Positions 12,801 to 31,402 of a stretch of DNA of 64,000 nt are shown one piece after another. Below the pieces are notes generated by a model that worked only from the letters and a program-made list of their open reading frames with translations, ran no database searches and was not told the DNA's origin. The stretch lies in the sequence record NC_135730.1; one strand, written 5' to 3'. Source of the DNA: a phage. How positions within the stretch are numbered: the stretch's first letter is position 1; each line of letters opens with the position of its first letter. A program made the translations under genes and the position numbers.

Positions 12801-13685
12801 ATGCCAAGCAATATAGTTGATGAAAAAGACCTGTACAAGCCTCAAGAGGTTAAATCTCCAAAGGCTGAAAAGGCAGAGCAGCAAACTGAAAGCGATGTAA
12901 AGTACACTATGTTTGTCAGCGGTCTTAACTATGGCGGTCGCAATACGGAGATGAAGGGTAAAAACTTTACTAACGATCTTGCCATTATCTTCGATCAGGT
13001 TGAGAATTACTCTTTCAAACATTCTGTTGATAAGACTGGGTTTGCGGTGGAAGATAAATCTACCCTGTCAGACCACGCTGTAATTAAAGATGGTGTATTT
13101 TCTTTTACTGGTAGGGTAAATACATCCCCACACATAATCTATGAGCAAAACTACATTGATAGGAATACTGACTCTAAAAACCCTGCAGCATCTATGCGAC
13201 CAGGCGCTGCATTGGAGGCTTTGACTGAGATTATCAATAAGCGACAGTTGGTTTCTTTGGTTACCGAGGAGAGACTTCTTGAGAACTACATCATAACCAG
13301 TCTTTCTGCCAACAAGTCTGTTGGTGAAGGAGCTGCAATGGTGTTTGATGTAGAACTTACAGAGTTCCGCACATTCTACTTGAATAAGGTTGTTAATGCA
13401 ACTGTATACAGCAATCCTAAGAAAGTAGGCAAGACCCAACAAAAAGGCGCTGTCAACGACTGTAAGAATGGTAGTAACGTAGGTAACAAGAGGGACACAG
13501 GAGCATTCGCAGACACTGCATCCACAAACGCTGCAGAGGAGTGGCAGCCATACAAATCTATGATGTGGACAGATGAAAACGGTGTTACCCAATCGGCTGC
13601 GGATTGGTATTATCAGGAATATGGAAGACCTTCTACCATAGTCCCATCTGAGCAGGGAAACTACAACAAAGTTAACGGGAAATAA
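12801..13685 (+). CDS. putative baseplate / tail protein
   Basis: First ORF after the tape measure; ATG 12801 with RBS GGAGAGG downstream of promoter 12739-12767 (track start 12774). Confidence 0.3.
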   Translation: MPSNIVDEKDLYKPQEVKSPKAEKAEQQTESDVKYTMFVSGLNYGGRNTEMKGKNFTNDLAIIFDQVENYSFKHSVDKTGFAVEDKSTLSDHAVIKDGVFSFTGRVNTSPHIIYEQNYIDRNTDSKNPAASMRPGAALEALTEIINKRQLVSLVTEERLLENYIITSLSANKSVGEGAAMVFDVELTEFRTFYLNKVVNATVYSNPKKVGKTQQKGAVNDCKNGSNVGNKRDTGAFADTASTNAAEEWQPYKSMMWTDENGVTQSAADWYYQEYGRPSTIVPSEQGNYNKVNGK

Positions 13686-13697
13686 GGGGAGCGTATA

Positions 13698-14078
13698 ATG
13701 GAGCTTAAAGATTGGTGCATAATCACCTTTGTGTGGGACATTGACGGCTTTCCTGACCAAACCATGCGTGTTGTTTTAGACAATGAAACGTATGAAATGC
13801 GTATGCAATGGAATGAGAGGGATGAGTCCTGGTGGTTATCTCTTGGTCCAGTAGGTGATAGCCCTTTAGTAACCAGAAAAGTAACAGCTTGTCAAGATAT
13901 TTTAGACGGACTGCATTACAGAGATGATTTACCGAAAGGAAGACTGATGGCGCTGTCGTTTAAAGACGATCAATATTGGGGTAGAGTTGGAAGATATAAC
14001 CTTGGGGCGAGATCTGAGCTACAACTTGTATACGGCACCCCGGTTGATCTTTACAAGGAACAGCAAGGGTTAGAATAA
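13698..14078 (+). CDS. hypothetical tail protein
   Basis: 126-aa ORF with RBS AAGGGGA, inside the baseplate gene run. Confidence 0.3.
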   Translation: MELKDWCIITFVWDIDGFPDQTMRVVLDNETYEMRMQWNERDESWWLSLGPVGDSPLVTRKVTACQDILDGLHYRDDLPKGRLMALSFKDDQYWGRVGRYNLGARSELQLVYGTPVDLYKEQQGLE

Positions 14079-15082
14079 TGGCAGAGTACAGACGTAGAAC
14101 ATGGCGATTATTGTTTGGTCGTCCGGTAGAGCATGGTGGTAAATCAAAAACCAATATCCCAAAATCTGTTGAAAAGAAAGGGGAGAGTGATTCCGGAGTT
14201 TATGAAGTTAGCTCAGACACTGGTGCTGCCAATATAGAGTTTGACATACAAAAGGACAATACCAAAGAGCCAAACAAAGGTTATGTGACAGTTTACAACC
14301 TGTCTGACGATACAGTTAACTATCTGGATATGCATCAGGCTGATGCCCTTGCAGTTATGTTTGAGGCTGGCTATGATGATGAGAACCAGTTAATATTCTC
14401 CGGAACTGTGGAGTTTGTTGAAGACAGATGGGAAGGTCCGACCAGAAAAACTAAGTTCATCTTCGGGGATGGCACTGAGAACATCATTAAGTGCCAAAGC
14501 ACAAGATCTTATCAGAAAGGCACACCTCTGAACTCTGTGCTTAATGACCTGCTGAAGGATATGAACTTGCCAAAAGGTAGGGTTGTTGGTTTTGGAAACC
14601 AGACTTTGCAATACTCTATGGCTTTCTCTGGAAACACTGCAGAGAACCTCCGCAGGTTTGCAAGGCTGACCAACTCCACATTTAGCGTTCAGGATGGGGC
14701 TTTGTATTGGACCAAGGTTGGAAAAAGGTTCAAAGACTCTGTGTTTGAAATAAGTGCAGAGTCTGGGATGCACGGATCTCCTACCCCTAAAAACCCAGAA
14801 CCTGCTAAAAAACGAAAAGCTAAAGCTGCTGCCAAAGGTGGTTCGACATCTAAAAAGAAAAAGAAAAACCCGAGAGAGGATGTTGGCCTTACTGTAACCA
14901 CATGCCTTAACGGAGCTATCCTCCCAGAGTCCACTATTTATCTTAAAAGCAAGCAATATACAGGATTCTATAAGGTGATCACGGTGCATCATAAGGGCAC
15001 CATAGAAGGAGGTGATTACACTACAGAGCTTGGCCTTGGGGAAACAGTGGGTGGAGTTGTTGACAAAACTGAGGAGGTATAA
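14078..15082 (+). CDS. putative baseplate hub protein
   Basis: 334-aa ORF directly upstream of the gpV-like spike gene; start overlaps the upstream stop. Confidence 0.3.
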   Translation: MAEYRRRTWRLLFGRPVEHGGKSKTNIPKSVEKKGESDSGVYEVSSDTGAANIEFDIQKDNTKEPNKGYVTVYNLSDDTVNYLDMHQADALAVMFEAGYDDENQLIFSGTVEFVEDRWEGPTRKTKFIFGDGTENIIKCQSTRSYQKGTPLNSVLNDLLKDMNLPKGRVVGFGNQTLQYSMAFSGNTAENLRRFARLTNSTFSVQDGALYWTKVGKRFKDSVFEISAESGMHGSPTPKNPEPAKKRKAKAAAKGGSTSKKKKKNPREDVGLTVTTCLNGAILPESTIYLKSKQYTGFYKVITVHHKGTIEGGDYTTELGLGETVGGVVDKTEEV

Positions 15083-15759
15083 TGGCAATAAATAGGAAAG
15101 ATGCTGCTGTAAGATCCTTTATAGAAAAAATAATGAGGGACTACCACACCAGTATCAGGGCCAGAGTTGTCAGTGTTGACTACAGTATACCTTCTGCAGC
15201 CGTGCAGCCAATAGCTGAAACTACGTTTGATGACGGAGATGTGGAGAGATACCCTCTTATCTATGACGTTCCAATTCAGGTGATGTCTGCAAACAGCGGA
15301 AAGGCAAGGTTAACACTTCCTATTAAGGCTGGAGATGTTGTAGGATTACAGTTTTCAGAGAGAAATGAAAACAATAACGACGATCAACAAACTCACGGCC
15401 TGTTTCCAGGGTGGGCAATCACCTCTGTCCATTCAGACTCAAACGCTTTACAGATCGATCCTGATAACGTAGAGTTATGGAATGATAGGGTTTATTTTAA
15501 ACTGACACCTTCTGGCGATTTTGAGCTTCAAACACCTGGTGGGACATTACGGTGCGACAGCAGCGGGGAGTTTTCTTTCACTAACGGGGCTGCCAATTTG
15601 CGAGCTGCTGTGGATGGGAATATCAGAATGAATGGTGCCACAATAGACCCATCTGGTAGAATTATAACTGCTGCTGGTGTGGATTTGGATTCATTCTATG
15701 CAGAATATAAAGGTCATACCCACTCTTGCCCTGATGGCGAGACAAGTGGACCGCACTAA
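15082..15759 (+). CDS. baseplate spike protein (gpV / gp5-like)
   Basis: C-terminal apex motif GHTHSCPDGETSGPH resembles the HxH apex of P2 gpV-type spikes; N-terminal OB-fold-like region. Confidence 0.5.
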   Translation: MAINRKDAAVRSFIEKIMRDYHTSIRARVVSVDYSIPSAAVQPIAETTFDDGDVERYPLIYDVPIQVMSANSGKARLTLPIKAGDVVGLQFSERNENNNDDQQTHGLFPGWAITSVHSDSNALQIDPDNVELWNDRVYFKLTPSGDFELQTPGGTLRCDSSGEFSFTNGAANLRAAVDGNIRMNGATIDPSGRIITAAGVDLDSFYAEYKGHTHSCPDGETSGPH

Positions 15760-15771: not shown

Positions 15772-16488
15772 ATGGCTACGCTTTACAGTGATATATTGAT
15801 GGACCCACAGACAGGTGATTTGGCGATAGACAAAGGTCTTGAGTTGATAGATTCAAACCAGGTAAGTCTGCGCCAGCGCTTGTGGATGAGGTTTAATACG
15901 TGGAAGGGGAGCTGGTACTTTGACGAGTTGTTTGGCTTCCCTTATATGGACTTTCTCAGTAAGAAGGTCATGAAGACTGTTCTTGATAACAAGATTATGG
16001 AAGTGGCAAGACAAGAGCCGGATGTGCTAAACATCATAAACTTCCAGTCTACCATGGATCGAAGATCGAGAACATACCAAGCGTTCTTTGAGGTTGTTAC
16101 CAAAGAGAACGAGATTGTAAGGCTGGCTTTCGTAGGTCTTGATCAGTTCACCTACCCACAGCCTGATTCTGGGACAACCTCTCTCTGTGATGATGAGGGT
16201 TGGATTAAGTGGGCTAATAAACTGTACTATCTGATCAACTTCAGGTTGCCTAGAACCGGAGATGCCACATGGTGGAACCAGTATGCTGGTCCTGAGATGG
16301 AAAACCCGATCCCTGTAGGCTCTCTGTTGACTCAGGATAAAGATCTGCTGATGACTGAGGCAGAACAAACCATTAACCGCAATACCTGGACGCTTGCTCC
16401 AGATGAGCGCGAATACTCTGGTGTTATTGCTACCTCCAATGACGAGGCTATTGCCAACCAGTCTGGTCGTGCTATTGATGTTAACTAA
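15772..16488 (+). CDS. putative baseplate wedge protein (gp25 / gpW-like N-terminus)
   Basis: N-terminal pattern DPQTGDL...GSWYFDELFGFPY resembles gp25-like proteins; follows the spike gene. Confidence 0.35.
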   Translation: MATLYSDILMDPQTGDLAIDKGLELIDSNQVSLRQRLWMRFNTWKGSWYFDELFGFPYMDFLSKKVMKTVLDNKIMEVARQEPDVLNIINFQSTMDRRSRTYQAFFEVVTKENEIVRLAFVGLDQFTYPQPDSGTTSLCDDEGWIKWANKLYYLINFRLPRTGDATWWNQYAGPEMENPIPVGSLLTQDKDLLMTEAEQTINRNTWTLAPDEREYSGVIATSNDEAIANQSGRAIDVN

Positions 16489-16497: not shown

Positions 16498-17166
16498 ATG
16501 GCTGTAGCTTATCCTACAATACCAATTCCAGATCTTGAAGATGCAGAAACAGTCCTGAGTGATGACTTCTTGGTTGTCAACCAGACTGATGGGACAAGAA
16601 AGGCTAAGATTGACGATGTTGTCAACGATCTTAGCATTACTAAGATAGTCTATTTCACAGAGGGTGGTTATCTTAAGAGCAAGAAGGACTTTGCTTATGA
16701 TCCAGAAACTAAGCGCTACTACACGTGGAACGGGGATTATCCTAAAATAATCCTCCCAGACTCCACGGTAGAGGGCGCTGGGGGTGTGTCTGCAAATGCC
16801 TGGTCTGTTTTTGGTGAGCTTGCTGCAACTTCTTCTGGCAGAATAGTTGATTACGGATCTATCGGTGGTCAGCTTGATATGGATCTTGAAGTTGCGGATA
16901 CCTTTAAAGTTCGACTAACTTCAAATACCACAATCTCTTTTGAAAATCAAACAGAAGGTCTTGAAGGGGTGGCGAGAACTATAACCGTATGCATTACTCA
17001 GACCTCTGGCGGCAACAAAGTCTATTGGCCTGGTAATGTTAAATGGTCCTACGGAAGAGATCCTATCCTAACATTTACAGCTGGTGCAACAGACATTTTC
17101 AAGTTGGAAACCTACGACAACGGGTTAACTTGGTACGGGGCACTGATTATCGCAGGAGCTATCTAA
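16498..17166 (+). CDS. short tail fibre / tailspike-like protein with shared N-terminal anchor domain
   Basis: N-terminal ~100 aa align with the N-terminus of the 1266-aa fibre (DDFLVV..D.TR.KI.DVV...EGG.L...DFAY...AW). Confidence 0.45.
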   Translation: MAVAYPTIPIPDLEDAETVLSDDFLVVNQTDGTRKAKIDDVVNDLSITKIVYFTEGGYLKSKKDFAYDPETKRYYTWNGDYPKIILPDSTVEGAGGVSANAWSVFGELAATSSGRIVDYGSIGGQLDMDLEVADTFKVRLTSNTTISFENQTEGLEGVARTITVCITQTSGGNKVYWPGNVKWSYGRDPILTFTAGATDIFKLETYDNGLTWYGALIIAGAI

Positions 17167-17167
17167 G

Positions 17168-19765
17168 ATGCGTATTCAACATAACATTGATAACGTATTT
17201 CAGATGATTGAGGGGCACAGGAAGTGCCTCGATAACAACACAGGTATTACCAACACCCCTACACAAAATAAGCTAGTAAACCCTGATGGTCTTATAGCTG
17301 CAGGGTGGGCAGGTAATAAGATAAATAATGATTGGGCAATGCATGAGTCCCAAGCTGTGTTGATTCTGGGATACATTGAAGCATACAGAGCATCGAAAAG
17401 CGATTTCTATCTGGATAGGGCAAAAGATGCTTGGGAAGCTTACAATAGTCATCTTCTGGGTGCATATGCAGTAGAAAGTAAAATGCAAAGATTGTCCCAC
17501 TACCCTCTATCCACAGATGGGGTTCCATCACATGGTGGGTTTAAAGATGTGGTGGTGTCTTTTACCAATGGTAGAGGAAAAATCCCAGCTGGATCTCCGA
17601 CATGGGGGGAATACCTGGACAAGGCATTCCAAGCGTATAACGGCGTGTTAGGAAGAAACACTGTAGACTCTGATGTTTACGGCGGCACAGATGCTAACCC
17701 AGATTGGACAACATCCGGATTAAGTTGGTGGGTTGAGTGGTATATAGCATGGGATGGTAATCGCTATTGGGCTAACGGTAGTATAGCTGATAGTGGTCAT
17801 ACGTCTGTAGAGTTTGGCACAATCCAATTACAAGATAAGGGTGTTACAGGCAACCACAAAGTGACCTATTGTGTAAGATTACCTCAAGAGCAGGGTGGAT
17901 CGGTGATACCTGCAGGATCCCCTGTAATTGTAAATCCCATAAACGTGGTTGCAGATAATCAGGCCCCAGAGTTGGACGGGGAAGAAATGTGGTGTGACGC
18001 TTGTTATCAACTCTACACCTTGACAGGTGAGGAAAAGTATTACACCGCGTTTGAACAGTCTTACAACAAGTTGCTTAATTTCAGTGATATAAACGCCTAC
18101 GACAAACTGTTTAGGAAGACCACGTTGATTAAGGCACCGTTTACAGATGGTACTTGTCTTGTTGCAGGAACAGTTCCTGTCATGAGCAGGGACAGTGACG
18201 GATATATCAATTTTAGAATGAACGCACGCCAGCCTTGCGAAATAATTCAAAAAGGGACTACATACAAAATAGGCAGAGATGCTGAAATTGTTATGAATTT
18301 CGGAGGAGAAGGGGTTCTGTTCCAGCCACATTTCATCATTAATGATGGCAACAATAACAAAAAACAGTACAGGATAGGTGTTCCTTTTGGAGGGGCAGAG
18401 GTAACAGAAATAGTTGCCAAGGTTACCGATTTCGTAGAGGTGGTTGGTAAAGACGGTAATCCATATCTCTTACCTAAAGAGGAAAACATTGTCGTAAGTG
18501 GTGGCGCTAGTGTTAGTATGCAGTATGATACCGACATTTACAACCACTCTGACAACTTCACCCGTTGTAATATAGCAAGAGGTAAAGTAACTTTCAATTT
18601 TGGAAGAGAGATTTCTTTAAACTCAGTAACTTATCGATCAGATGATGAGATGGTAAGGGTCAAATTTCTTGACAAAGACAGGTGGTTATGGTATGCTGAT
18701 CTATATGCCACTAATGGACAATGGATAACAGAAACTCTTACTCTAGGAGATTTCAAACTAGATCCGACACAACCTCATCACACTGAAGAAGAGATTAAAC
18801 CTTTCTTTGCTAATCCTAAGGGGCTCACCTCTGTAGATTTCAGCCTAAGCGACAGGCAGATAGGTAATGGCTTGTTTGATCTATATTGCGTCAACACGCT
18901 GCCGCAATTCTATATTGCAGATAGGGATGCTTATCTAATCTGGTTTAGCGTATGGATGGCAAGCAAGACAGAATCAACCGCTAAGGTTGGCGATTGCTAT
19001 GTCAGAAACTACAAGCAAGGTGCATACAGGCACACACCAGGTGTGTTCCCTGCCGGAAAGGTGATAGATAAGGAAAACTATCTCTTAGAGGAAAGGCCAA
19101 ATTGGCCCTACCCAGGCATGCAATACCCGGCAGTCTACTGCATGGGTGCAGAAAACATAGATCGCCATAGATTGTCAAATACAATAGGCTTTCTGTATGA
19201 CGCTCAAGTCTGGTATAATAATACATTTAAGACAGAGGGTCCAGTTGCCTCACGTTATGTATGGCAAAGAGGTAATGAAGGGTTGACTGGTTGGTGGGAG
19301 ATGGTAGATAACTCCAAGCTCCAGTCAAGATCTTTTGTTGCTGCGTGCCGCACAATCTATGAGCTCAAGAAACATAAAGAACCTGTTGATGAAAGATTAT
19401 TCCTGTTCTGCCAGAAATGGGCATGGTTCCTCAACAGATTCCAGTCATCTCATTCAGGAAATCTGCCTACAGACTTTAACACCTCTGGGGGATATTCTTA
19501 TCAAGACAGAGGGGACAGGATGTGGGTGGTAGGTGAATGGCTTGCAGGTTGCTGCTGGCTAGGTCTGTGCGGGTATTCAGAGACAATACCTCAAATAGAT
19601 ATTGTTGTAGAAGCCTGTATGAAGCTACTGCAAAAGCACCACTTCATCAATGGTGATAATGTTTTAAACGGCTGCTGGGCAGTTTCTGACCCGGTGGGCT
19701 ATCACTCTGGCGAAATCCTTCGCGGTCTGGGCCTCTATGCTCAATACCGTGGATTGTACCTTTAA
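17168..19765 (+). CDS. tail-associated protein with (alpha/alpha)6 glycosidase-like domain
   Basis: 865-aa ORF in the tail operon; segments such as ESQAVLILGYIEAYRASKSDFYLDRAKDAWEAY resemble six-hairpin glycosidase folds. Confidence 0.35.
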   Translation: MRIQHNIDNVFQMIEGHRKCLDNNTGITNTPTQNKLVNPDGLIAAGWAGNKINNDWAMHESQAVLILGYIEAYRASKSDFYLDRAKDAWEAYNSHLLGAYAVESKMQRLSHYPLSTDGVPSHGGFKDVVVSFTNGRGKIPAGSPTWGEYLDKAFQAYNGVLGRNTVDSDVYGGTDANPDWTTSGLSWWVEWYIAWDGNRYWANGSIADSGHTSVEFGTIQLQDKGVTGNHKVTYCVRLPQEQGGSVIPAGSPVIVNPINVVADNQAPELDGEEMWCDACYQLYTLTGEEKYYTAFEQSYNKLLNFSDINAYDKLFRKTTLIKAPFTDGTCLVAGTVPVMSRDSDGYINFRMNARQPCEIIQKGTTYKIGRDAEIVMNFGGEGVLFQPHFIINDGNNNKKQYRIGVPFGGAEVTEIVAKVTDFVEVVGKDGNPYLLPKEENIVVSGGASVSMQYDTDIYNHSDNFTRCNIARGKVTFNFGREISLNSVTYRSDDEMVRVKFLDKDRWLWYADLYATNGQWITETLTLGDFKLDPTQPHHTEEEIKPFFANPKGLTSVDFSLSDRQIGNGLFDLYCVNTLPQFYIADRDAYLIWFSVWMASKTESTAKVGDCYVRNYKQGAYRHTPGVFPAGKVIDKENYLLEERPNWPYPGMQYPAVYCMGAENIDRHRLSNTIGFLYDAQVWYNNTFKTEGPVASRYVWQRGNEGLTGWWEMVDNSKLQSRSFVAACRTIYELKKHKEPVDERLFLFCQKWAWFLNRFQSSHSGNLPTDFNTSGGYSYQDRGDRMWVVGEWLAGCCWLGLCGYSETIPQIDIVVEACMKLLQKHHFINGDNVLNGCWAVSDPVGYHSGEILRGLGLYAQYRGLYL

Positions 19766-23608: not shown

Positions 23609-23636
23609 GCCCTCGCTTCGGCGGGGGCTTTTTGTT
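23609..23636 (+). terminator. intrinsic terminator (TTCG tetraloop)
   Basis: GCCCTCGC-ttcg-GCGGGGGC then TTTTTGTTTG. Confidence 0.65.
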
Positions 23637-23700: not shown

Positions 23701-24291
23701 ATGTTTTTATGGGAAAGGCCTAGATACCTTCCAGATATTAGATTGGAGCTGCTGGCAGATATTGTTACGTTTAAAAGTCCGTTTACAGGTAAAACGCAAA
23801 AAGTAACCTATGCCACACCTAACTGGAAAGGCACTTTGACGGTTTCCAATATCAGCGAGTCACAGTTGCTAGAGCTTAAGAGCTTTGTTGATCAGGTGTA
23901 TAAAGATGGAAACATCTTTCTTATTAAAACTTACGGTCACTCAGTTACAGCTAATGAGCCAATCGCCCTTGGGCCTACTGGTAACGACGATTTTTTGAAG
24001 ACGGTTGGGTGGGAGCCAAACAGAGACATAGCCAGAGCTGGGGATAAAATATCTGTCAATGATGAATTGAAAGTGGTAACAGCTCCAGTGCGTAGCGATG
24101 GTGTTGGGTCTGCTGTTATAAGCATATCTCCAAGACTTAGAAAACCTATTGCCGCAGGGGACACTATGAAGATAATAACTCAATCCCCGAAGGGTAGGTT
24201 TCATATCAGAGATATTTATAAAATTAAGCAAAAAGTCGATGCTATGCAAAAAGGTGATAATATAGTTATCAACTTCTTTGAGGATTTCTAA
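23701..24291 (+). CDS. putative minor tail protein (gpM / distal tail protein-like position)
   Basis: 196-aa ORF, first gene after promoter 23641-23669, upstream of the L/K/J-like genes; call is by position only. Confidence 0.3.
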   Translation: MFLWERPRYLPDIRLELLADIVTFKSPFTGKTQKVTYATPNWKGTLTVSNISESQLLELKSFVDQVYKDGNIFLIKTYGHSVTANEPIALGPTGNDDFLKTVGWEPNRDIARAGDKISVNDELKVVTAPVRSDGVGSAVISISPRLRKPIAAGDTMKIITQSPKGRFHIRDIYKIKQKVDAMQKGDNIVINFFEDF

Positions 24292-24292: not shown

Positions 24293-24844
24293 ATGATCAG
24301 AGCGCCATTAGATAATTTATTTCTTGAAAAGCTGGAGCTTGATGGTGTTGAGATCTTAATTGCTGCAAAGCTGGAGCTACCGACAGGAACTGTCAGGGTG
24401 TGCTCAGGCACTGGTGTTGTAGTAATTGAGGGGCAACATTTTATAGGGATAGGGGGATCAGCAACATTAACTGCTGTGTCTGAGAAAGATGCCACCAACT
24501 TCGGATCTGTGGTAGCGACATTGAACGGGTTTGATCCTAAGTATGTGGGTGATCTGCTGAAGACGGAGTATTCTGGTTGTCGTGCCACGTTGTACATTAC
24601 CGCTATGGAGAATGGTCTACCTGTCACAACTAATGGCTTGTTTGACGGCCTTATAACAGATATGGCTATTCAGACAGGTGAGAATAGTGCTTTGTCAATA
24701 TCCATCTCTTCCATCTTCAACAGTTGGTTAAGAGGTTTTCCTTATCGGTACACGGAGGAAAGCCACAGCTCAAGAAACGATAATGACAGATTTTTTAAAT
24801 ATGTGGATCAGGTGGCGAGCCGCCCGATCATTTGGGAGGTTTAA
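24293..24844 (+). CDS. putative minor tail protein (gpL-like position)
   Basis: ATG 24293 with RBS GAGGA (track TTG 24278); position between M-like and K-like genes. Confidence 0.3.
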   Translation: MIRAPLDNLFLEKLELDGVEILIAAKLELPTGTVRVCSGTGVVVIEGQHFIGIGGSATLTAVSEKDATNFGSVVATLNGFDPKYVGDLLKTEYSGCRATLYITAMENGLPVTTNGLFDGLITDMAIQTGENSALSISISSIFNSWLRGFPYRYTEESHSSRNDNDRFFKYVDQVASRPIIWEV

Positions 24845-25269
24845 TGAGCACACACCCTCGTTTAGTGGATTGGCAAGAAAGATTGTGGAAAGTGTTTGAC
24901 GAAGAGGCCACCATACCTTTTGAATGGGGATTCCACGATTGCTGCACCTTTGCAGCTAAGTGTGTTGATGCCCAATACGGAACAGATTTTCTTTCCAACT
25001 TCGAAGGAACGTATAAAACAGAGTTGGAAAGCAAAAGATGGTGCATGCTTCGTTTCAAAACTACACACCTGCCTACTATTTTTGATCTCTTTATGACTCG
25101 ACTGGATACTCCTAAACAGGTTCAGCGTGGCGATATTGTTATTTTCGAAGGTCTGAACGGGCTCACCGCTGGTGTGTTCTGGAACAACCAGATTTGGGCG
25201 AAAGGTGATAAAGGGGTCTTTATGTTCGACATGAAAGATTCTATCGTTGTTGATGTCTGGAGGTATTAA
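24844..25269 (+). CDS. putative tail assembly protein with Cys-His peptidase-like motif (gpK-like position)
   Basis: ATG 24844 with RBS GGGAGG; HDCC motif; directly upstream of the J-like gene. Confidence 0.3.
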   Translation: MSTHPRLVDWQERLWKVFDEEATIPFEWGFHDCCTFAAKCVDAQYGTDFLSNFEGTYKTELESKRWCMLRFKTTHLPTIFDLFMTRLDTPKQVQRGDIVIFEGLNGLTAGVFWNNQIWAKGDKGVFMFDMKDSIVVDVWRY

Positions 25270-28200
25270 TGCCAATTGCAATGATTGATAACATCGTTGC
25301 TTCTGCAAGATCTTCAAGTTATGACTGGAACGCATCCAAGGCAGCTCTGGCTGACAGCCTGAACACTGTGACCACCAGAACTTTGGATAAGATTTTTGAG
25401 GGCAACAAATCTTACAGAAGTCAGCAAGATAGACAAAAGCTTCTCAGATCTTCTGCTGCACCTTGCTCTGTAGTGTATGGAAAGACACGCACATCTGGAT
25501 TGCTTGCGTTTTTGGAGCAGGATAGCGACAGAACCCTCCATTGTGCTATTGTTCTTGCCAATCACCCTCTGGAAGGTATAGAAGATATACTTATCGACGG
25601 TAATCCTATTTCCTCGTATGGAGATCTGGTATCGTGGGAGCTACATAACGACAGAAAAACATCTGATCCTTTCATGGGTACACACTGCCCATCATGGTCA
25701 CCTGACATGATAGGTAGAGGGATCAGTTGGCTACGTGCCAGCTTCAGGTTTGACCCTAACAAGTTTCCTTTTGGGTTGCCAAACGTTACACTCGTCAAGA
25801 TTGGTAAAAAATGCTATGATCCTCGTATCAGTAAAGAGGTGTACACCAATAACGCTGCCTTGGTGATCCTAGACTATTTAAGAACGTACCTTAAATGTCC
25901 TGACGAAACCATCAACTGGGAGTCCTTCAAGGAGGCTGCCAACATATGCGACGAGGCGGTAAAAAACGCAGACGGAACCAGTGAGCGCCGTTACACCATT
26001 AACGGTGAGTTTGACATGGATGAGGCCCCAGCAAGTATTATGGCAGAAATGCTGAAAGCTTGCGGTGCAGATCTTAGTTATGTTGCTGGTAAGTATGGTT
26101 TGCTGGTTGGTGCATACTATGGCCCAGCAACAATGACACTTAGTGAGGACTGTGTCTGTGGTGAGGTTAAGATCTATCCGGAAGCCTCATTTGACAAAAG
26201 ATCCAACACAATAACTGGCAGATTCACTAGCCCGACCAAAGGGTATTCTGAAACAGATTTTCCATCAGTGTTTGTCCCAGAGTGGATAGAGAAGGATGGA
26301 GAAAGAAAGATAATCGATATAGACTATCGCTTTGTTACCAGCCCTTATCAAGCTCAGCGTGTTTCTGCAATCTTCTTAAGACGTGCTAGAGCTGGCAGGA
26401 TTATTGAAGTCACCTGCAATATGCGAGGTTTTAAATTTAAGCCTGGCCGTTATGTTACAATGGACCTCCCAAGTATTGGTATAGTGGGCCAAGAAATGAG
26501 GGTTCTTGAATGGGAGTTCACCAAAAAGGGCGGTGTCAAGGTAAAACTTCGTCAAGATGCTAAAGAGTGGAATGATGCCACAGGGCAACTTCCGGATTCC
26601 GGCGATGTAGATATTCCGATATCCCCGTCCGGTGTAGCTCAGCCGCAAAACTTCAGATACTCAGTTCTCCAAGCTGGGGAAGTAACTCACGGTGTTTTGG
26701 CCTGGGACAACGTTGGGACTTACGCTCAAAATATTGTGCAGGTAAGAAAGAACGGAGAGATTGTTTGGACAGCACAGACAGTTGAGCAGTTTGTCCGTGT
26801 TGAAGGTCTGACTAAAGGTTCCTACACAGCCACTGTTGTTGCAACATCTTATAAAGGTGGTGTATCTCCAGAAGCGTATTGTGAGTTTAACATTCAGGCA
26901 CCTGAAGCTCCGGTTTCTGTAGAGGTTAAGCAAGGATACTTTGCTATCACCTTGATTCCGCATAGTAGGGATTTAGCAAGTGTTAGCACCCAGTATGACT
27001 TTTGGACATCCGGTATGACAAGGTTGCCCGACACCAGTGATGCAACCGTTACTTCAAACGCCACCCGTATGGGTGTTGGTTCAACTTGGACATCTGAAGG
27101 TCTGCAGAACGATAAGGTTTATTATTGGTATATTCGAACCACAAACGCTTTTGGTAGTTCTCAGTTTGTAGAATGCGCTGCACGCTGCTACACCTCTATT
27201 GAGGATTTGATGCCTCAGATAGATGCTGAATTCAAAAAGACAGAAACTTATAAAGAGTTGATGAGCACTTTGGATTCCTCTATTGAAGAGGTTGAAAATC
27301 GTGTCACAGAACTTAACAGGTACATGGATGGTAGGGTAGATGAGGCATTCCAGCAACTTGGAGACAGAATAGGTGCGGTAGTTACAGAGACAACTCAGAA
27401 GTTTGAGGATGTCAATGGCAATATCACAGCGCTGGATAGGAAACTTGTTGCTGCACAGAACAAGTTCACCAACGATCTGAACACTGAAAGTGGAAGATTG
27501 GCATCCCTGATTGAGACAACCAATAAAGCAACTACTGATCTTCTGAACAAAAAGACAGAGGCTTTAGATGAGAAATTGGTTGCCGCCAAAGGTGAGCTGG
27601 TAGAGCAGATAGAGGGAGTTGAGAGCGGGTATTTAGCCGGAGATAAAACTCTGGATGGTAAGATCAATACTCAGAGAACAGAACTTGACGCAAGCATCTT
27701 GAGCACTAACCAGGCCACTGTGGATCTTTTGAACAGGACATCTGAAACTCTGGATCAAAAGATTAGTCAGACAAACGCGACGGTATCTAAAAACTATACC
27801 ACCCTTGACGGCAAGATAACTACCGCAAAAACTGACCTCAACACCTTGATTGCCAATACCAACAAGGCCACCACTGACTTGTTGAATCAGAAAACATCTG
27901 CACTGTCAGAGCAGATAACTTCTGCACGTGGGGAGATTTCTACCAACAAGCAAGCGATTGATGCTTTGGATGGAAAACTGACCTCCACAAAAACAGCGCT
28001 GGATGCTACAATTTCCGATACCAATAAAGCCACTGTGGACCTTATCAACGGCACAGCGTCAGCTATTCGTCAAGAACTTGCTGTTGCTAAGCAGGAGATC
28101 ATTGATGATGTTGGGGATGTGTCTGAGATCAGGGCTGCAGTAGCTACAACATCTAAGGCTGTAACCGACTTAGAGGGTAAAGTAAATGCTCAATGGGGCA

Positions 28201-29108
28201 CAAAAATACAGGTAGACTCCGCAGGGAATAAATATGTTGCAGGTATCCAGCTGGGGATGGAAGGGTCTGGGGGCCAAGTTCAATCCTACTTCATGGTTAG
28301 TGCAAACAATTTTGCGGTATACAACCCAGGAAATGGAACAGCAACCCTTGCTTTCGCAATCAAGAACAACCAAGCGTTCTTGAAAGACGCTTTTATAGAG
28401 AATGGCACGATCTCCTCTGCCAAGATCGCACAAGAAATTTCGTCAAACAACTACGATGGCAACGGGTACCATAAATACGGTTGGTATATTAATAAGAACG
28501 GGCACGCCCAATTTATGGATGTGTGGGTGAAAGGCAACATCAACGCCAGTTCTGGTAACTTCACAGGGGCAGTTAACGCCACTAGTGGTACCTTCCGTGG
28601 AGATGTTTATGCCAATAATGGCAGCTTTAGAGGCACCATAGATGCAACCGGAGGTACCTTCCGTGGTCGTGTAGAAGCTTCTGTTATCCGCGCTAACCAG
28701 TTCGAAGGTGCAATTGTTGCACACAGGACTTACGGGGATTGTGCTCCAGTATATAACTCCCAGCAAAGGGTTTGCCGTTGGAGGTGGAGATACGTAGATA
28801 ACGTTTCAGGTCAGGGTAAGAACGTAACATTCTTCTTTAAACTGAATGGTACTCTTGCCAGCTCCCAGCTCAACGTTTGGATAGCCGGACATCAAATCCT
28901 TGCAGGTAAGAAGTACGGAAACGACAACAACGGCATGTGTGCGGTAGGGATAACAGGTCTTGGTGAACAAACCATAGATATTGTTGTTGAAATCTACACA
29001 CCATGGTCAACGTCTTCTGTAACAGGGGTCGCAATATCCTGTCCTACTGTTGTGGTAAGCCGTTCTAACTCAAGCTTCCAAGGACCTTGGAACGAGTCTC
29101 ACGACTAA
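25269..29108 (+). CDS. tail tip / central fibre protein, lambda gpJ-like (host specificity protein)
   Basis: Similarity along the whole protein to lambda J as recalled from memory (YTNNAALVILDYL vs YSNNMAWCLWDML; GYFAITLIPH vs GYFQITATPH; YYWYIRTTNAFG vs YYFYIRSVNTVG; QWGTKIQVD..YVAGIQLGMEG vs MWAVKIEQT..YVAGIGLSMED). Confidence 0.65.
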   Translation: MPIAMIDNIVASARSSSYDWNASKAALADSLNTVTTRTLDKIFEGNKSYRSQQDRQKLLRSSAAPCSVVYGKTRTSGLLAFLEQDSDRTLHCAIVLANHPLEGIEDILIDGNPISSYGDLVSWELHNDRKTSDPFMGTHCPSWSPDMIGRGISWLRASFRFDPNKFPFGLPNVTLVKIGKKCYDPRISKEVYTNNAALVILDYLRTYLKCPDETINWESFKEAANICDEAVKNADGTSERRYTINGEFDMDEAPASIMAEMLKACGADLSYVAGKYGLLVGAYYGPATMTLSEDCVCGEVKIYPEASFDKRSNTITGRFTSPTKGYSETDFPSVFVPEWIEKDGERKIIDIDYRFVTSPYQAQRVSAIFLRRARAGRIIEVTCNMRGFKFKPGRYVTMDLPSIGIVGQEMRVLEWEFTKKGGVKVKLRQDAKEWNDATGQLPDSGDVDIPISPSGVAQPQNFRYSVLQAGEVTHGVLAWDNVGTYAQNIVQVRKNGEIVWTAQTVEQFVRVEGLTKGSYTATVVATSYKGGVSPEAYCEFNIQAPEAPVSVEVKQGYFAITLIPHSRDLASVSTQYDFWTSGMTRLPDTSDATVTSNATRMGVGSTWTSEGLQNDKVYYWYIRTTNAFGSSQFVECAARCYTSIEDLMPQIDAEFKKTETYKELMSTLDSSIEEVENRVTELNRYMDGRVDEAFQQLGDRIGAVVTETTQKFEDVNGNITALDRKLVAAQNKFTNDLNTESGRLASLIETTNKATTDLLNKKTEALDEKLVAAKGELVEQIEGVESGYLAGDKTLDGKINTQRTELDASILSTNQATVDLLNRTSETLDQKISQTNATVSKNYTTLDGKITTAKTDLNTLIANTNKATTDLLNQKTSALSEQITSARGEISTNKQAIDALDGKLTSTKTALDATISDTNKATVDLINGTASAIRQELAVAKQEIIDDVGDVSEIRAAVATTSKAVTDLEGKVNAQWGTKIQVDSAGNKYVAGIQLGMEGSGGQVQSYFMVSANNFAVYNPGNGTATLAFAIKNNQAFLKDAFIENGTISSAKIAQEISSNNYDGNGYHKYGWYINKNGHAQFMDVWVKGNINASSGNFTGAVNATSGTFRGDVYANNGSFRGTIDATGGTFRGRVEASVIRANQFEGAIVAHRTYGDCAPVYNSQQRVCRWRWRYVDNVSGQGKNVTFFFKLNGTLASSQLNVWIAGHQILAGKKYGNDNNGMCAVGITGLGEQTIDIVVEIYTPWSTSSVTGVAISCPTVVVSRSNSSFQGPWNESHD

Positions 29109-29113: not shown

Positions 29114-29143
29114 AAAGCCCCGCTTCGGCGGGGTTTATTTTTA
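29114..29143 (+). terminator. intrinsic terminator (TTCG tetraloop)
   Basis: AAAGCCCCGC-ttcg-GCGGGGTTT then ATTTTTA. Confidence 0.65.
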
Positions 29144-29151
29144 TGCTCAGA

Positions 29152-29180: not shown

Positions 29181-29213
29181 ACCTTGTAGAGATTTTCATA
29201 CCGGAGGAGTGAC

Positions 29214-30704
29214 GTGGCTAAGTATGGATTGACAGAGGCTGGTTTCGTTATACCAACCCTAAATGACCTAATCGTTGAAACTAAGCAAAGCCTGATCCGT
29301 GCTTTTGGCGAAAACTTCAACGTACAGAGTAACTCCGTTGCAGATAAGCTGACCACTATCTTCAACGAGCGAGAGTATCAACTTATTCTTATGGCAGCAT
29401 CTGTATACGCATCACAGACGCTGTATGGGGCAGAAGGTATTTACCTGGATGAGCTTCTTGGAAGACAGGGTATTTACCGAAGAGGCCGTTCTAAATCATC
29501 AGGTACCTGCCAGTTGACAATCAACACAACTGTGCCGTACAATATGATTTATGATTCCAAAACTTATACGCTGGACAGTGGCAACTTTGTTCTTAGTAAT
29601 GATGTGCAAGTAGCAGGGAATCTTATTGCTCACAGAATAAATGCTCCGGACCTAAGGATTGGTAAATACAACTTTCAAATTACCAACCAGACAGATGGAA
29701 GTATCAAAACAAAAAGCCTGGTTTTAACAGATAAGTCTCTGGACTCTTCTGATTTGCCAAGCTTTTACGGAGAGATTAAGCAATTCATTGTCGATAATAC
29801 AACCCTGTTGAACGACGATTTGATTCAGATCGATATGTTGACAGGAACGTTGTGGATAGGGTACAATTCGAATCTTGATCAAGTTGGACTTAATAGCAGG
29901 GTAGATTTCAGAGTATCCCCGATTGTAGGGGAAAGAACTATCACACTGGATGTTATCGCTAACGAGGCTGGTGAGCTGTCAAGAGAGGCAGAAACCGTGA
30001 CAACAATGTCACCTACTCCCAGTGGATTCATCAAGCTTACCAACCGAGAAAGATTCAATGAGGGCAGGGATGTTGAGAAAGACTCAGAGTATCGCTTAAG
30101 AGCTTCCAGCACAAAACAGTTAACATCTAAGGCTACCCGTCCTGCAATCCTTAGCGCTGTAAGCGAGGTGAAAGGTGTTGAGAAAGTGAGAGTGTTCTCT
30201 AACAATACCGATAAAACTGATGCTAAAGGTATACCTCCTTACAAGTTCCAAGTGGTTGTGTTTGGTGGTGCAACGGAGGACATTTGCCAAGCACTTTACC
30301 AAACTATAGCCTGTACGAACAGGACTTATGGTAATATTTTCTACGATGTCGCTACATCTGACGGTCAAACTGAAAGAATTTATTACTCCAAGGCAAATAC
30401 CTACCGCCTAGATGTAAGAATTACCTATTCCGGCGCTGCGCTTTCCACAACCGAAAAAGATGCCATTGTAGAGGCTCTTTTGCAGGTTGTTAACGGACTG
30501 GATGTTGCAGATACGTTGTACAATATCCAATTGGTCGGTGCTGCATCCGCTGCTGTGTCGATAGGTAGATTTAATAGACTGGTAATTCAAGTTAAACCAG
30601 TAGGAGCTTCTGATGAAGCTTACACTACAAACGATATTGTTGCGAACATGACCGAGGTGTTTGACCTCGACGAAAGTAATATAACTTTCCAACAAACTAT
30701 TTAA
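29214..30704 (+). CDS. baseplate wedge protein (Baseplate_J / gp6-like)
   Basis: GTG start after GGAGGAG; conserved DSEYRLRA motif matching DTDYRLRI of P2 gpJ; downstream of promoter 29152-29180. Confidence 0.45.
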   Translation: MAKYGLTEAGFVIPTLNDLIVETKQSLIRAFGENFNVQSNSVADKLTTIFNEREYQLILMAASVYASQTLYGAEGIYLDELLGRQGIYRRGRSKSSGTCQLTINTTVPYNMIYDSKTYTLDSGNFVLSNDVQVAGNLIAHRINAPDLRIGKYNFQITNQTDGSIKTKSLVLTDKSLDSSDLPSFYGEIKQFIVDNTTLLNDDLIQIDMLTGTLWIGYNSNLDQVGLNSRVDFRVSPIVGERTITLDVIANEAGELSREAETVTTMSPTPSGFIKLTNRERFNEGRDVEKDSEYRLRASSTKQLTSKATRPAILSAVSEVKGVEKVRVFSNNTDKTDAKGIPPYKFQVVVFGGATEDICQALYQTIACTNRTYGNIFYDVATSDGQTERIYYSKANTYRLDVRITYSGAALSTTEKDAIVEALLQVVNGLDVADTLYNIQLVGAASAAVSIGRFNRLVIQVKPVGASDEAYTTNDIVANMTEVFDLDESNITFQQTI

Positions 30705-30715
30705 GGCGGCGAGAT

Positions 30716-31402
30716 ATGGCAGAGATTAAGTCGGATGTTAACCACATCCACACTCTGCCAGATTTTGTTCAGGGAGGTCTTGACTACCTACCTGGAGATT
30801 TTCTGGCTGAGAAGGTTAATTTAGTCACATTCTTAACCGTATACCTTAAAAGGTTGGAGGATGTTGATAAGATGCTGGTAGGTTTGGCTGAAGGAAGATT
30901 GCTTAACAATGCCAGCGGAAGATACCTTGACGAAGTTGGTAATCAACTTGGTATTCTTAGGAATGGACTTTCAGATGCTGATTTTCGTGCCACACTAATT
31001 ATTCAGCAGGCCGCAGCATCAAGGGGCGGGACTCGCGAAGATGTCATCTCCACCTTGCGACAATTGTTCGGAAGAGACAATTTCGATACGTGGAAAGGAG
31101 ACAACTTCAGGTTTGACATAAATATTAGAAAAACTTGCTTTGACATATTGCAGTCTATCGATCAGATCTTAGATATGCTACCATTACCTTGTCATTTGCG
31201 TCTTACAGAATCGCAAGGGCAAGCTTTTGGTTTTGAAGGGGACTCTACAGCTCTTGGCTTCGGATCAGTGTGGGAAGAAAGCCAATTCGGAGTTGGTGGG
31301 CTGGCTACTTTGCTATATGTTCCTGACGTAAGACCTGATTGGGACACCACAACCATTTATTGTGAAAGTATTACAGTAAACGCAACTAGACAGGAGGGTT
31401 AA
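30716..31402 (+). CDS. putative tail protein I-like baseplate protein
   Basis: 228-aa ORF following the Baseplate_J-like gene; motif LDEVGNQLGILRNGLSDADFR resembles gpI-family proteins. Confidence 0.35.
   Translation: MAEIKSDVNHIHTLPDFVQGGLDYLPGDFLAEKVNLVTFLTVYLKRLEDVDKMLVGLAEGRLLNNASGRYLDEVGNQLGILRNGLSDADFRATLIIQQAAASRGGTREDVISTLRQLFGRDNFDTWKGDNFRFDINIRKTCFDILQSIDQILDMLPLPCHLRLTESQGQAFGFEGDSTALGFGSVWEESQFGVGGLATLLYVPDVRPDWDTTTIYCESITVNATRQEG

Follow-up and report, generated by a model that had tools for sequence, protein, structure and literature searches.

Queuovirinae-type siphoviruses (Seuratvirus/Nonagvirus: Hafnia yong3, Skure, Cronobacter CSP1) carry a tail-tip module of four tightly coupled genes, encoding proteins of approximately 195, 190, 135 and 1000+ amino acids, which lies directly after the tape measure gene and forms the end of a non-contractile tail. 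The same module is present in Pantoea phage Vid5, Pseudomonas phage phiPSA1, Acinetobacter phage Loki and Vibrio siphoviruses; the four-gene layout is unchanged in Skure, Vid5, phiPSA1 and the Vibrio phages D287 and K486, and in Loki the Dit and hub genes are separated by an additional N4 gp65-like gene. The J homologue of Vid5 is a component of the virion, on which TEM shows a single central fibre. [quoted passage not shown] Among contractile tails, the baseplates of phi92 (Justusliebigvirus) and phiTE (Certrevirus) have been solved by cryo-EM, and the structure of the phiTE sheath is available in both the extended and the contracted state.

We analyzed a window of 64,000 nucleotides (the whole stretch of phage DNA under study; NC_135730.1) that shows 97-98% nucleotide identity to Vequintavirus genomes and is accordingly assigned, from its sequence, to an rV5-like (Vequintavirus) E. 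coli phage with a contractile tail. The locus of interest lies entirely on the + strand, with the genes at the coordinates given in the first-pass annotation, and runs from the tape measure gene through the tube initiator, plug, hub, HxH spike and sheath initiator genes and some 12.6-12.7 kb of extra genes to two wedge genes (Table 1). The order of hub, spike and gp25-like genes proposed for the region after the tape measure gene holds, but the tube initiator and plug genes precede the hub. Within the extra DNA, four genes are, by sequence comparison, homologous to and collinear with siphovirus tip modules, apparently those of the cone-shaped, lambda-like type found in Queuovirinae, and the flanking genes are those of a bona fide contractile baseplate; the proposal of a siphovirus tip module within a contractile-tail baseplate operon is thus borne out. 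The arrangement had also been considered unusual; however, 114 Vequintavirus records carry the locus (at least 80% of the region covered, identity >90%), so the order of genes is the usual one in a known genus. The numbers of Vequintavirus-level matches are similar for the Dit gene (118 records), the J hub (116) and the wedge gene (116). More than 100 published genomes already contain the module genes, and the facts at the genome level are known; we found no published account that reads them as a siphovirus tip in a myovirus baseplate.

Table 1. Genes and transcription signals of the Vequintavirus tail locus (positions in the window)
Feature	Position	Strand	Evidence
Contractile tail sheath protein	7548..8924	+	phrog_205 E 5e-116; phiTE sheath 9cb9/9cba E 5e-144; phi92 gp130 E 4e-48
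Tail tube protein	8935..9408	+	PF11681 KPP10_Orf10
Tape measure protein (TMP)	10359..12695	+	PF20155 TMP_3
Terminator after TMP, = rV5 t049	12706-12725	+	terminator scan
Tube initiator of myovirus baseplate, Dit-like fold	12774..13685	+	PF21821 Dit_like E 2.5e-22
Baseplate plug protein	13698..14078	+	PF22479 Pam3_gp18 E 3e-18; equivalent to phi92 gp136
Baseplate hub	14078..15082	+	phrog_196 E 8e-84
Central spike, HxH iron-binding apex GHTHSCPDG	15082..15759	+	PF18352 N-terminal domain; apex from translation
Sheath initiator, gp25-like	15772..16488	+	phrog_120 E 1e-20
Fibre block gene 1, 222-aa fibre adaptor	16498..17166	+	Tail_spike_N PF18668 E 2e-10
865-aa tail/fibre protein, homologue of phi92 gp141	17168..19765	+	phrog_2871
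1266-aa fibre, Tail_spike_N anchor and C-terminal Peptidase_S74 intramolecular chaperone	19801..23601	+	PF18668, PF13884
Intrinsic terminator upstream of module, = rV5 t041	23609..23628	+	8-bp stem, 7 GC pairs, T-run
Module late promoter, = rV5 P040	23641..23670	+	extended -10 TGGTAAAAT; published MEME late promoter
Module gene 1, 196-aa distal tail protein (Dit), lambda gpM / T5 pb9 equivalent	23701..24291	+	predicted fold
Module gene 2, 183-aa tail-tip hub protein, lambda gpL / T1 gp36 equivalent	24293..24844	+	phrog_2048 E 9e-68
Module gene 3, 141-aa DUF6950 protein in lambda gpK position	24844..25269	+	PF22262 E 3e-33
Module gene 4, 1279-aa J-like central-fibre protein	25269..29108	+	Ig_J, Ig_J_second, Phage_Tail_Tip (Pfam); phrog_31 E 2e-163
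Intrinsic terminator downstream of module	29115..29136	+	9-bp stem and T-run
Wedge-operon promoter, = rV5 P036	29152..29181	+	TTGACT-17-TAAAAT with TG; rV5 Table S4
Wedge subunit, Baseplate_J family, equivalent to phi92 gp145	29214..30704	+	PF04865; phrog_6
Second wedge subunit, phiTE Wedge 1 / phi92 gp146	30716..31402	+	PDB 9mjn/9cuy E 6e-67; gp146 E 2e-23

The tail is contractile and has a hub and a spike of its own. The sheath, tube, tube initiator, plug, hub, HxH spike, sheath initiator and both wedge proteins are orthologous to those of the phi92 and phiTE baseplates, and the gene order is the same. The tube protein is 82% identical to an SSE121 homologue whose gene adjoins the sheath gene there, and its Bas51 homologue is annotated as tail tube; the tube initiator is position-equivalent to phi92 gp135; the hub shows 39-60% identity to the hubs of ESCO9, POP15 and SSE121. 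The spike, predicted as such in the first-pass annotation, ends in ...YKGHTHSCPDGETSGPH, and its HxH motif is also present in the phi92 spike structure. Likewise, the gp25-like gene is confirmed as a sheath initiator, being homologous to the gene that follows the spike gene in the phi92-like phage ESCO9, and its L012 orthologue (92% identical) matches PF10934 (Sheath_initiator). The Baseplate_J-like assignment of the first wedge gene (32-60% identity in sister genera) is similarly upheld, whereas there is no gpI-like gene. That the whole tail is an unusual mosaic of doubtful contractility, the strongest form of the original interpretation, has next to no probability in our estimation: the lambda gpE-like capsid protein (PF03864; the gpD-like component of the supposed lambda-like head has no Pfam support) and the presence of fibres of both podovirus and siphovirus types are compatible with it, but the gene for which sheath and tube had been weighed matches the phiTE sheath in both its states, contracted sheaths are visible in rV5 by EM, the core baseplate set is complete and the arrangement is the norm in 114 sequenced phages.

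The ~12.6 kb between the sheath initiator and wedge genes, originally treated as one insert, resolves into two layers, a fibre block of three genes that occupies the first 7.1 kb (16498-23601) and the tip module, a 5.5-kb unit (23609-29136) that forms the last part and is the only part of siphovirus type. The fibre block is common to Seunavirus and phi92-like phages: the fibre adaptor is 41% identical to its counterpart in SSE121 and 42% in ESCO9, and the 865-aa protein shows 35% full-length identity in both. The latter protein had been described as glycosidase-like but has no Pfam match and no PDB sequence match, whereas the long fibre indeed contains the predicted intramolecular chaperone. 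In related myophages, the junction between the gp25-like and wedge genes gathers fibre genes. In the Certrevirus POP15, approximately 90 bp separate the two genes, and this gap holds a terminator and promoter cassette but no gene; they are likewise adjacent in W70; Seunavirus and phi92-like phages possess only the older fibre block, the fibre set at this position being different in the phi92-like phage. The four module genes have no match in the three sister-group loci examined (Certrevirus, Seunavirus and phi92-like, POP15 and ESCO9 among them) and, among the myophage loci and collection matches examined, are confined to Vequintavirus.

The module genes are translationally coupled via TAATG overlaps, and their products show 31-58% amino acid identity to the Queuovirinae-type homologues, J hub domains included. 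In Hafnia yong3, the genes directly after the TMP gene encode proteins with 31%, 36%, 41% and 43% identity to the module proteins, in the same order, the second of them being designated a minor tail protein; the best J-hub matches come from Queuovirinae-type 60-kb siphoviruses (52-58%), and residues 48-700 of the J-like protein are 43-58% identical to Queuovirinae central fibres. The lambda J-like identification of this protein stands: its PDB matches include lambda J and the T1 and F-pyocin fibres, and its Ig and Phage_Tail_Tip domains are homologous by sequence to those of lambda and T1 J. It consists of hub domains (~48-460), Ig/FN3 domains (493-652), a coiled coil with repeats (~650-950), the Phage_Tail_Tip domain (957-1097) and a C-terminal domain. 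No sequence similarity of the module proteins to lambda M, L, K or I is detectable, and the module contains no gpI-like gene. For the first two proteins, Dit and hub folds are predicted by AF2 models of moderate confidence (pLDDT 68, for the 183-aa protein, and 78; fold matches at TM ~0.35-0.5). The best structural matches of both come from the T5/DT57C tip, namely pb9 (E 1e-8) and the hub domain at the N-terminus of pb3 (E 1e-6), at sequence identities of only 12-17%; the predicted Dit fold matches lambda gpM as well; the hub protein also matches lambda gpL (2e-4) and the T1 hub (9l9p_J, 5e-4) in Foldseek and has a weak profile match to residues 47-177 of pb3. The Dit protein has an extra beta-barrel domain, as does pb9; in contrast to the single 949-aa chain of the T5 hub, the module hub is, as in lambda and T1, divided into two chains, here the 183-aa and the J-like protein. 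The 183-aa protein is shorter than its lambda/T1 counterpart and without an Fe-S tail: it lacks the C-terminal tail present in 5/6 siphovirus homologues, and a conserved cluster of Cys residues that could hold an Fe-S centre is missing. Thus, of the M/L/K-like designations, the first two are supported by the folds; the third is only positional and weakly motif-based, the alignment of the invariant Asp-Cys motif of DUF6950 with the C40 motif of lambda K falling short of significance. DUF6950, unlike lambda gpK, has no MPN domain.

We consider it probable that a complete siphovirus tail-tip module was captured and is predicted to act as an exapted tip complex, an extra receptor-binding appendage. 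The Vequintavirus ancestor would have acquired the module by insertion at the terminator/late-promoter junction between the sheath-initiator and wedge genes. The four products might still form a tip-like complex, built from a ring of Dit and one trimer each of the hub protein and the J-like protein, with DUF6950 as an assembly factor or minor component. This complex would be one more receptor-binding appendage on the many-fibred Vequintavirus baseplate, with the long coiled-coil and beta-helical J shaft as the strain-variable part. Against this reading, we know of no precedent for a free Dit ring without a tube to dock on. Cryo-EM of two Vequintaviruses, which resolved only three fibres near the baseplate and in which no cone was reported, also speaks against it, as do the moderate confidence of the fold models and, described below, the rV5 virion proteome and the K-12 screens.

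It is possible, but rather unlikely, that only the J-like protein is structural, anchored by its hub domains to the baseplate or fibre network, and that the three small proteins are unincorporated assembly helpers, like lambda gpK. Peptides of rV5 gp37, the J-like protein, are reported from virions at a coverage of only 4.2%, and the 196-, 183- and 141-aa proteins do not figure in the rV5 report's list of detected virion proteins; this pattern, the lack of a K-like protein in the lambda and T1 structures and the weak conservation of DUF6950, lowest among the module proteins at 57% identity and dN/dS 0.19, all fit that alternative. However, the rV5 proteome is too shallow to count as a negative because only 19 proteins were detected by mass spectrometry in all, each cone-shaped tip solved so far has Dit-like and gpL-like proteins among its building blocks, and in a divergent Vequintavirus lineage both are as conserved as core baseplate proteins.

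The Vequintavirus module differs from the Queuovirinae-type one in lying 11 kb from the tape measure gene, behind the myovirus hub/spike/sheath-initiator set and under its own promoter, and in being followed by a terminator and wedge genes instead of an RBP locus. The J-like protein has a longer, repeat-bearing coiled coil, and its N-terminus is hydrophilic in both Vequintavirus lineages, whereas this segment is TM-like in all 84 siphovirus homologues checked (7/7 from phages and 77/77 from IMG/VR). The exapted complex would no longer close the tube or conduct DNA because no tape measure or tube gene adjoins the module and the hydrophobic N-terminal segment of J, with its putative role, has become hydrophilic. 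An axial complex, surrounding the central spike or extending beneath it, or else uncovered at the end of the tube once the tail has contracted, and aiding envelope penetration as in siphoviruses, appears distinctly unlikely. Such a location would agree with the axial position of the complex in siphovirus homologues, where the J homologue is a single central fibre, and with the resemblance of the distal coiled-coil and tip region of J to the F2 fibre of F-type pyocins (E 4e-16), whose central fibres are membrane-active. F-pyocins themselves are whole tails of the non-contractile kind, tube and tape measure included. Against an axial location, no second tape measure or tube gene lies in or beside the module, the phage encodes a tube initiator, a hub and an iron-tipped spike orthologous to the axial ones of the module-free phi92 and phiTE, the hydrophobic N-terminal segment of J is lost, and the other tail genes of the window match module-free sister genera.

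The promoter and terminator attributed to the 12.6-kb insert both exist but bracket the four-gene module only. The promoter equals rV5 late promoter P040, although the 23641-23669 site falls below the threshold of the sigma-70 scan; the terminator was found at the predicted place, and the upstream one (23609-23628), listed as t041 in rV5 Table S4, is stronger. In the window, the motif AAAATNTGGTAAAATA occurs only at 23641-23669 and at 29166-29181; the two occurrences are the late promoters published for rV5 as P040 and P036. The two terminator/late-promoter cassettes that flank the module are 67% identical (score 80 versus 18 +/- 8 for shuffles) and are evidently homologous, duplicated elements.

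A divergent Vequintavirus lineage retains all four module genes with intact ORFs, at dN of 0.08-0.15 versus saturated dS, similar to the core baseplate genes; from these values, all four are under purifying selection. The idea that the module is a recombination passenger from a siphovirus, with no role in the particle, is therefore very improbable, even though the module-free sister-genus loci examined belong to viable phages and no K-12 host factor is tied to the module: genetic screens in K-12 revealed only dependence on LPS (LL12) and on the NGR/ECA glycan, and no receptor attributable to the J-like fibre. Apart from the intact ORFs with dN well below saturated dS, the module genes are found in about as many Vequintavirus records as the wedge gene, a late promoter serves them, and gp37 peptides are among those reported from virions. 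In addition, the distal part of J varies between alleles in the manner typical of receptor-binding proteins: the first 700 residues are at least 95% identical in all records of the genus but one, and the distal half is only 60-80% identical in 48 records.

The 18.6-kb region has matches in 127 phage records, 114 of them at >90% identity over at least 80% of its length; the best matches, slur16, slur12, rV5_ev147 and the BASEL phage WalterGehring (Bas51), show 97-98% identity at 100% coverage, and 21 of the 21 tested proteins of the window are 98-100% identical to those of Bas51. Because of this level of locus and protein identity, the sequence can be assigned to the genus Vequintavirus, the rV5-like myophages. 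The gene order described in the first-pass annotation is indeed present, and what had been considered unusual is the standard arrangement of the genus (114 records); the locus as such is ordinary for Vequintavirus and already deposited in databases. At least 18 GenBank records labeled 'Campylobacter phage' (host C. jejuni, MG0656xx series) share 97-99% identity with E. coli Vequintaviruses across the whole locus, which looks like contamination or a mislabeled host of the deposit and not a true host jump.

The framework of the locus is that of a contractile tail. The tested components of the contractile core baseplate, namely the sheath and tube, the hub and HxH spike, and the sheath initiator and wedge proteins, are all present, and the baseplate genes recognized at first reading (hub, HxH spike, gp25-like and Baseplate_J) are all supported by family or structure matches. 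A non-contractile tail was rejected on the strength of the match to the sheath of phiTE, the structure of which has been solved in both the extended and the contracted states. Electron microscopy of rV5 shows a contractile tail. The baseplate gene order is that of phi92 gp134-gp139 followed by gp145-gp146, with the positions of these proteins in the phi92 baseplate known from cryo-EM; in the phi92 spike, the same HxH motif coordinates Fe. For the protein encoded at 15772-16488, two Pfam sources disagree: hmmscan against Pfam gives no family even at E <= 10, whereas a precomputed table assigns PF10934 Sheath_initiator to a 92%-identical orthologue.

Features of the contractile-tail framework, the tip module and the sheath-initiator/wedge junction (window coordinates unless another genome is named)
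Feature	Coordinates or gap	Assignment and remarks
Tail sheath	7548-8924	phrog_205; phiTE sheath 9cb9/9cba, E 5e-144; phi92 gp130
Tail tube		PF11681 and conserved synteny
Tape measure	10359-12695	PF20155
Tube initiator, Dit-like fold	12774-13685	after tape measure
Pam3_gp18-type plug	13698-14078	
Hub	14078-15082	phrog_196
Spike	15082-15759	PF18352 domain; C-terminal GHTHSCPDG; end ...YKGHTHSCPDGETSGPH
gp25-type sheath initiator	15772-16488	phrog_120; PF10934 on orthologue
Strong intrinsic terminator	23609-23628	rV5 t041
Module, 196-aa protein	23701-24291 (+)	Dit
Module, 183-aa protein	24293-24844 (+)	gpL-like hub protein
Module, 141-aa protein	24844-25269 (+)	DUF6950
Module, 1279-aa protein	25269-29108 (+)	J-like central fibre
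Strong intrinsic terminator	29115-29136	
Wedge protein, Baseplate_J family	29214-30704	PF04865; located past the extra genes
Second wedge protein	30716-31402	matches phiTE 'Wedge 1' and phi92 gp146
Junction cassettes	23602-23700, 29109-29213	
Junction cassette, locus L010	19899-19988	
Junction cassette, locus L009	19887-19994	
Sheath-initiator/wedge gap, POP15 (Certrevirus)	~90 bp	gene-free
Sheath-initiator/wedge gap, SSE121 (Seunavirus)	5.7 kb	222-aa Tail_spike_N adaptor homologue; 865-aa protein homologue; colanidase
Sheath-initiator/wedge gap, ESCO9 (phi92-like)	~6.3 kb	adaptor, 865-aa homologue, N4 gp65-like protein
Sheath-initiator/wedge gap, this window (Vequintavirus)	12.7 kb	three-gene fibre block and four-gene module

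The extra DNA between the sheath initiator and the wedge genes had been taken for one 12.6-kb insert. Mapping of the window proteins by tblastn onto 41-kb loci from three related groups (POP15, SSE121 and ESCO9) revealed two layers, and a single-insertion origin was rejected. In Septuagintavirus W70, the sheath-initiator and wedge genes are adjacent as they are in POP15, and the part that the SSE121 colanidase has in common with the 1266-aa fibre of the window is the N-terminal anchor only. The four module proteins have no tblastn match in any of the three loci (0/3), so that 16498-23601 is an older fibre block shared by these groups, and the last 5.5 kb was found in Vequintavirus only. The observation and the core interpretation of the first-pass annotation stand, and the unusual whole-tail mosaic gives way to an ordinary contractile tail with a two-layer insert. 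The base composition across the module shows no anomaly and therefore provides no evidence on its age or donor. Within the fibre block, the label 'glycosidase-like' originally attached to 17168-19765 is not supported by Pfam or PDB sequence searches. In the divergent contig L013 (5121-9898, compared with window 19801-23601), the long fibre comprises 1481 aa, lacks Peptidase_S74 and has a separate 110-aa ORF behind it; the LL12 paper describes a comparable chaperone-domain loss, and the fibre gene seems to alternate between a self-chaperoned and a separately chaperoned form.

The four genes that make up the second layer are a siphovirus tail-tip module. A single-sequence protein search with the 196-aa protein retrieves near-identical sequences only, and alignment-seeded searches were needed. 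In tblastn, the non-Vequintavirus records matching this protein are all below 60% identity and, among the matches listed, all are genomes of 42-83 kb or short fragments. We examined eight siphovirus loci, including those of the Queuovirinae Skure and Hafnia phage yong3, Pantoea phage Vid5, Pseudomonas phage phiPSA1, Acinetobacter phage Loki, and Vibrio phages D287 and K486. The homologue of the 196-aa protein is encoded directly 3' of the tape measure gene in 8/8 and, in all but Loki, is immediately followed by a ~190-aa 'tail protein', a ~135-aa protein and a J-like protein of at least 1000 aa; Loki has one additional gene after Dit. The identity to yong3 is 31%, 36%, 41% and 43% for the four proteins in order, and for J spans residues 48-722, hub domains included. 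The closest relatives of the J hub are found in 60-kb Queuovirinae-type phages (52-58% identity), and the best 80 IMG/VR loci fall into two sets, Vequintavirus contigs (99-100%) and contigs of at most 81 kb with no more than 58% identity. The J homologue of Vid5, a siphovirus, is part of the virion, the tail end of which shows a single central fibre. In these siphoviruses, the module immediately follows the tape measure gene and its products cap the tube, whereas in the window it starts 11 kb past that gene, separated from it by five baseplate genes of the myovirus type and three fibre genes.

Sequence searches with the three small proteins against Pfam, NCBIfam and PDB yielded nothing apart from DUF6950; when profiles built from 7-sequence alignments were run against the PDB, the 183-aa family gave a sub-threshold T5 pb3 match (E 0.13) and the other two families gave noise. 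Accordingly, predicted structures were used. The 196-aa protein is a distal tail protein with a tube-like fold. The AF2 model of the 183-aa protein (pLDDT 68) matches the N-terminal hub domain of DT57C/T5 pb3 (E 1e-6) and also lambda gpL (E 2e-4), the T1 hub gp36 (9l9p_J, E 5e-4), and the Chi, R4C and GTA hubs; in lambda and T1, the cone-shaped tip is built from a Dit hexamer, a hub-protein trimer and a central-fibre trimer. The gpL-type hubs carry a C-terminal Fe-S cluster domain, whereas the 183-aa protein ends before any Cys cluster; its alignment with six siphovirus homologues contains no invariant Cys, and the homologues of this sub-family lack the cluster as well. A C-terminal tail, GSKKDAPxFxY, is found in 5/6 of these homologues and is missing from the 183-aa protein. 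The DUF6950 protein has an invariant Asp-Cys, which hhalign places on the C40 motif of lambda K with a non-significant probability of 3%, and the family alignment contains no invariant His. The J-like protein matches PF24421, PF24489 and PF09327, phrog_31 across residues 143-1135, and lambda J in the PDB, with a weak PF13550 match (E 0.1); its hub part shares 43-58% identity with the central fibres of siphoviruses. Of the initial M/L/K/J-like assignments, M, L and J hold at the fold or sequence level and K by position only; the M and L equivalence rests on predicted folds because hhalign comparisons with single lambda M, L and K sequences were not significant. There is no gpI-like gene at the locus. 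The J coiled coil (residues ~650-950; window 27200-28120) contains four diverged repeats of ~51-62 residues with the signature TN(K/Q)AT(T/V)DL(L/I)N, which are visible at the protein level only, a tandem-repeat search of the DNA having found nothing.

The module is flanked by two strong intrinsic terminators, each followed by the motif AAAATNTGGTAAAATA, which has no other copy in the 64-kb window; the two motif sites are the published rV5 late promoters P040 and P036. Aligned with each other, the two terminator-promoter cassettes show 67% identity (score 80 vs 18 +/- 8 for shuffled sequences), and a cassette of this kind fills the short spacer between sheath initiator and wedge in POP15 and the spacer before the wedge in SSE121. 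With the cassette now on both flanks, the module has its own late transcription unit. Within it, the genes are coupled by TAA-G-ATG once and TAATG twice, with a GGAGG-type site before each. The junction cassette appears to be a site of fibre-gene accumulation, and the simplest reading is that it is the ancestral junction and an insertion hot spot. A terminator hairpin and, after it, the late-promoter motif (A/T)ATNTG(G/A)TAAAATA are kept at the sheath-initiator/wedge junction across Certrevirus, Seunavirus and Vequintavirus.

In the divergent Vequintavirus-like lineage (L012), all four module genes are retained in the same place, with amino acid identities of 85%, 87%, 57% and 80%. The dS between the two lineages is saturated (>1.7 or not computable), and the Dit, hub and J genes have a dN of 0.08-0.15, the range also seen for the spike, the wedge genes and the adaptor; DUF6950 is looser (dN/dS 0.19). 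Among Vequintavirus-level records, Dit is found in 118 (at least 90% identity), the J hub in 116 (at least 90%) and the wedge protein in 116 (at least 95%). Within the genus, J shows at least 95% identity across its N-terminal 700 residues in 115 of 116 records, and the distal 579 residues drop to 60-80% identity in 48 records, a pattern that fits the allelic variation described by the BASEL authors. Between the two lineages, the coiled coil is the most variable part of J and is 80 residues shorter in L012.

The N-terminus of J differs between the two types of tails. All seven aligned siphovirus homologues start with ~40 Ala/Gly/Ile/Val-rich residues (7/7), with a maximum 19-residue hydropathy of 1.7-2.3 and 1-4 charged residues, whereas J of both Vequintavirus lineages starts with an equally long hydrophilic segment (maximum 0.3-0.4, 9 charged residues). 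Among the best 80 IMG/VR loci, a hydrophobic segment (at least 1.6) is present in 77/77 non-Vequintavirus relatives and 0/3 Vequintavirus contigs. Thus, the TM-like N-terminus is a feature of the Queuovirinae-type sub-family that is missing from Vequintavirus J. We infer that, in the siphovirus tip, this segment is part of the lumen-plugging or membrane-insertion side, and it might have become dispensable once the complex had left the DNA-conducting tube.

These observations suggest a scheme in which the module would be expressed late and its products would form a tip-like complex attached somewhere on the baseplate or the fibre network; the variable shaft and tip of J would then provide a many-fibred phage with an additional adhesin, with the central axis presumably occupied by the phage's own hub and iron-tipped spike. 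Such a complex is most likely used as an extra adhesin. In its full form, with autonomous siphovirus tip cones (a Dit ring, a gpL-like hub and a J-like fibre) sitting off-axis on the Vequintavirus baseplate as an exapted receptor-binding organelle that lost the membrane-insertion segment, the scheme is tentative, and we would give it somewhat less than an even chance. Several published data argue against the tip-complex mechanism. Cryo-EM of Bas49/Bas54 (EMD-51868 and EMD-51869) resolved three fibres only, without any cone reported, and left one density attached to a fibre head (TC8) without assignment; K-12 genetics identified the NGR/ECA glycan and the LPS core only, with no receptor attributable to the J-like fibre. 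The rV5 proteome is shallow: the J-like protein gp37 was found in purified virions by four peptides in a run with just 19 proteins identified, and the three small module proteins do not appear in the published list of detected proteins or in the mass spectrometry table entries covered here; the E. coli O177 phage paper includes no virion mass spectrometry. The main rival explanation is that J alone is structural and the small proteins are assembly factors; set against the predicted Dit and gpL-like folds and the retention of all four genes, we consider it rather unlikely.

The J-like character of rV5 gp37 (COG4733, hub-like HHpred matches) was noted in 2013, many database records give 'tip attachment protein J' or 'distal tail protein' as the annotation of module genes, and the RBPseg study describes one Vequintavirinae fibre with an N-terminal region typical of central tail fibres. 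Full-text literature searches, with incomplete coverage, found no account of the four genes as a transplanted siphovirus tip module and no mention of the sister-genus absence, the duplication of the cassettes or the loss of the hydrophobic segment.

In Vequintavirus, a complete assembly unit of several proteins has crossed from phages with non-contractile tails to contractile-tailed ones and was kept intact under selection. Receptor-binding proteins move between phage morphotypes as single genes or domains, and the tail-tip unit normally nucleates and closes the tail tube. The off-axis cones, if real, would represent the first instance in which a complete tail-tip assembly, and not just one fibre gene, was transferred from one tail morphotype to another and took on a new role. 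If assembled as proposed, tail-tip complexes would be self-contained building blocks, re-usable as side appendages; the module would be a candidate for the Vequintavirus cryo-EM fibre density fitted by no predicted fibre model and an additional candidate host-range determinant, and the hydrophobic and hydrophilic J N-termini would amount to a natural experiment on the role of this segment in siphovirus genome delivery. Vequintavirus-type phages are widely used in E. coli O157 biocontrol and therapy.

Downstream of the wedge genes, the window encodes a 690-aa N4 gp65-like protein (31402-33474; NCTSP_N, TIM-barrel_NCTSP and Calx-beta), homologues of which are found in ESCO9 inside the sheath-initiator/wedge gap (17079-19136, 42% identity) and in Loki between the Dit and hub genes of the tip module (2213-3283, 29% identity); therefore, the same adhesin serves podo-, myo- and siphoviruses. 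Two paralogous short tail fibre genes (33487-34527 and 35542-36585, both phrog_4465) flank a Caudo_TAP-type chaperone gene (34542-35126); the short tail fibre gene is single-copy in Seunavirus and the phi92-like phage. A search of the 64-kb window identified no tRNA genes. The GC skew changes sign at ~44 kb and reverts at ~52 kb (window ~43500-52000), which is consistent with a minus-strand gene block after the last fibre gene, as annotated in Bas51.
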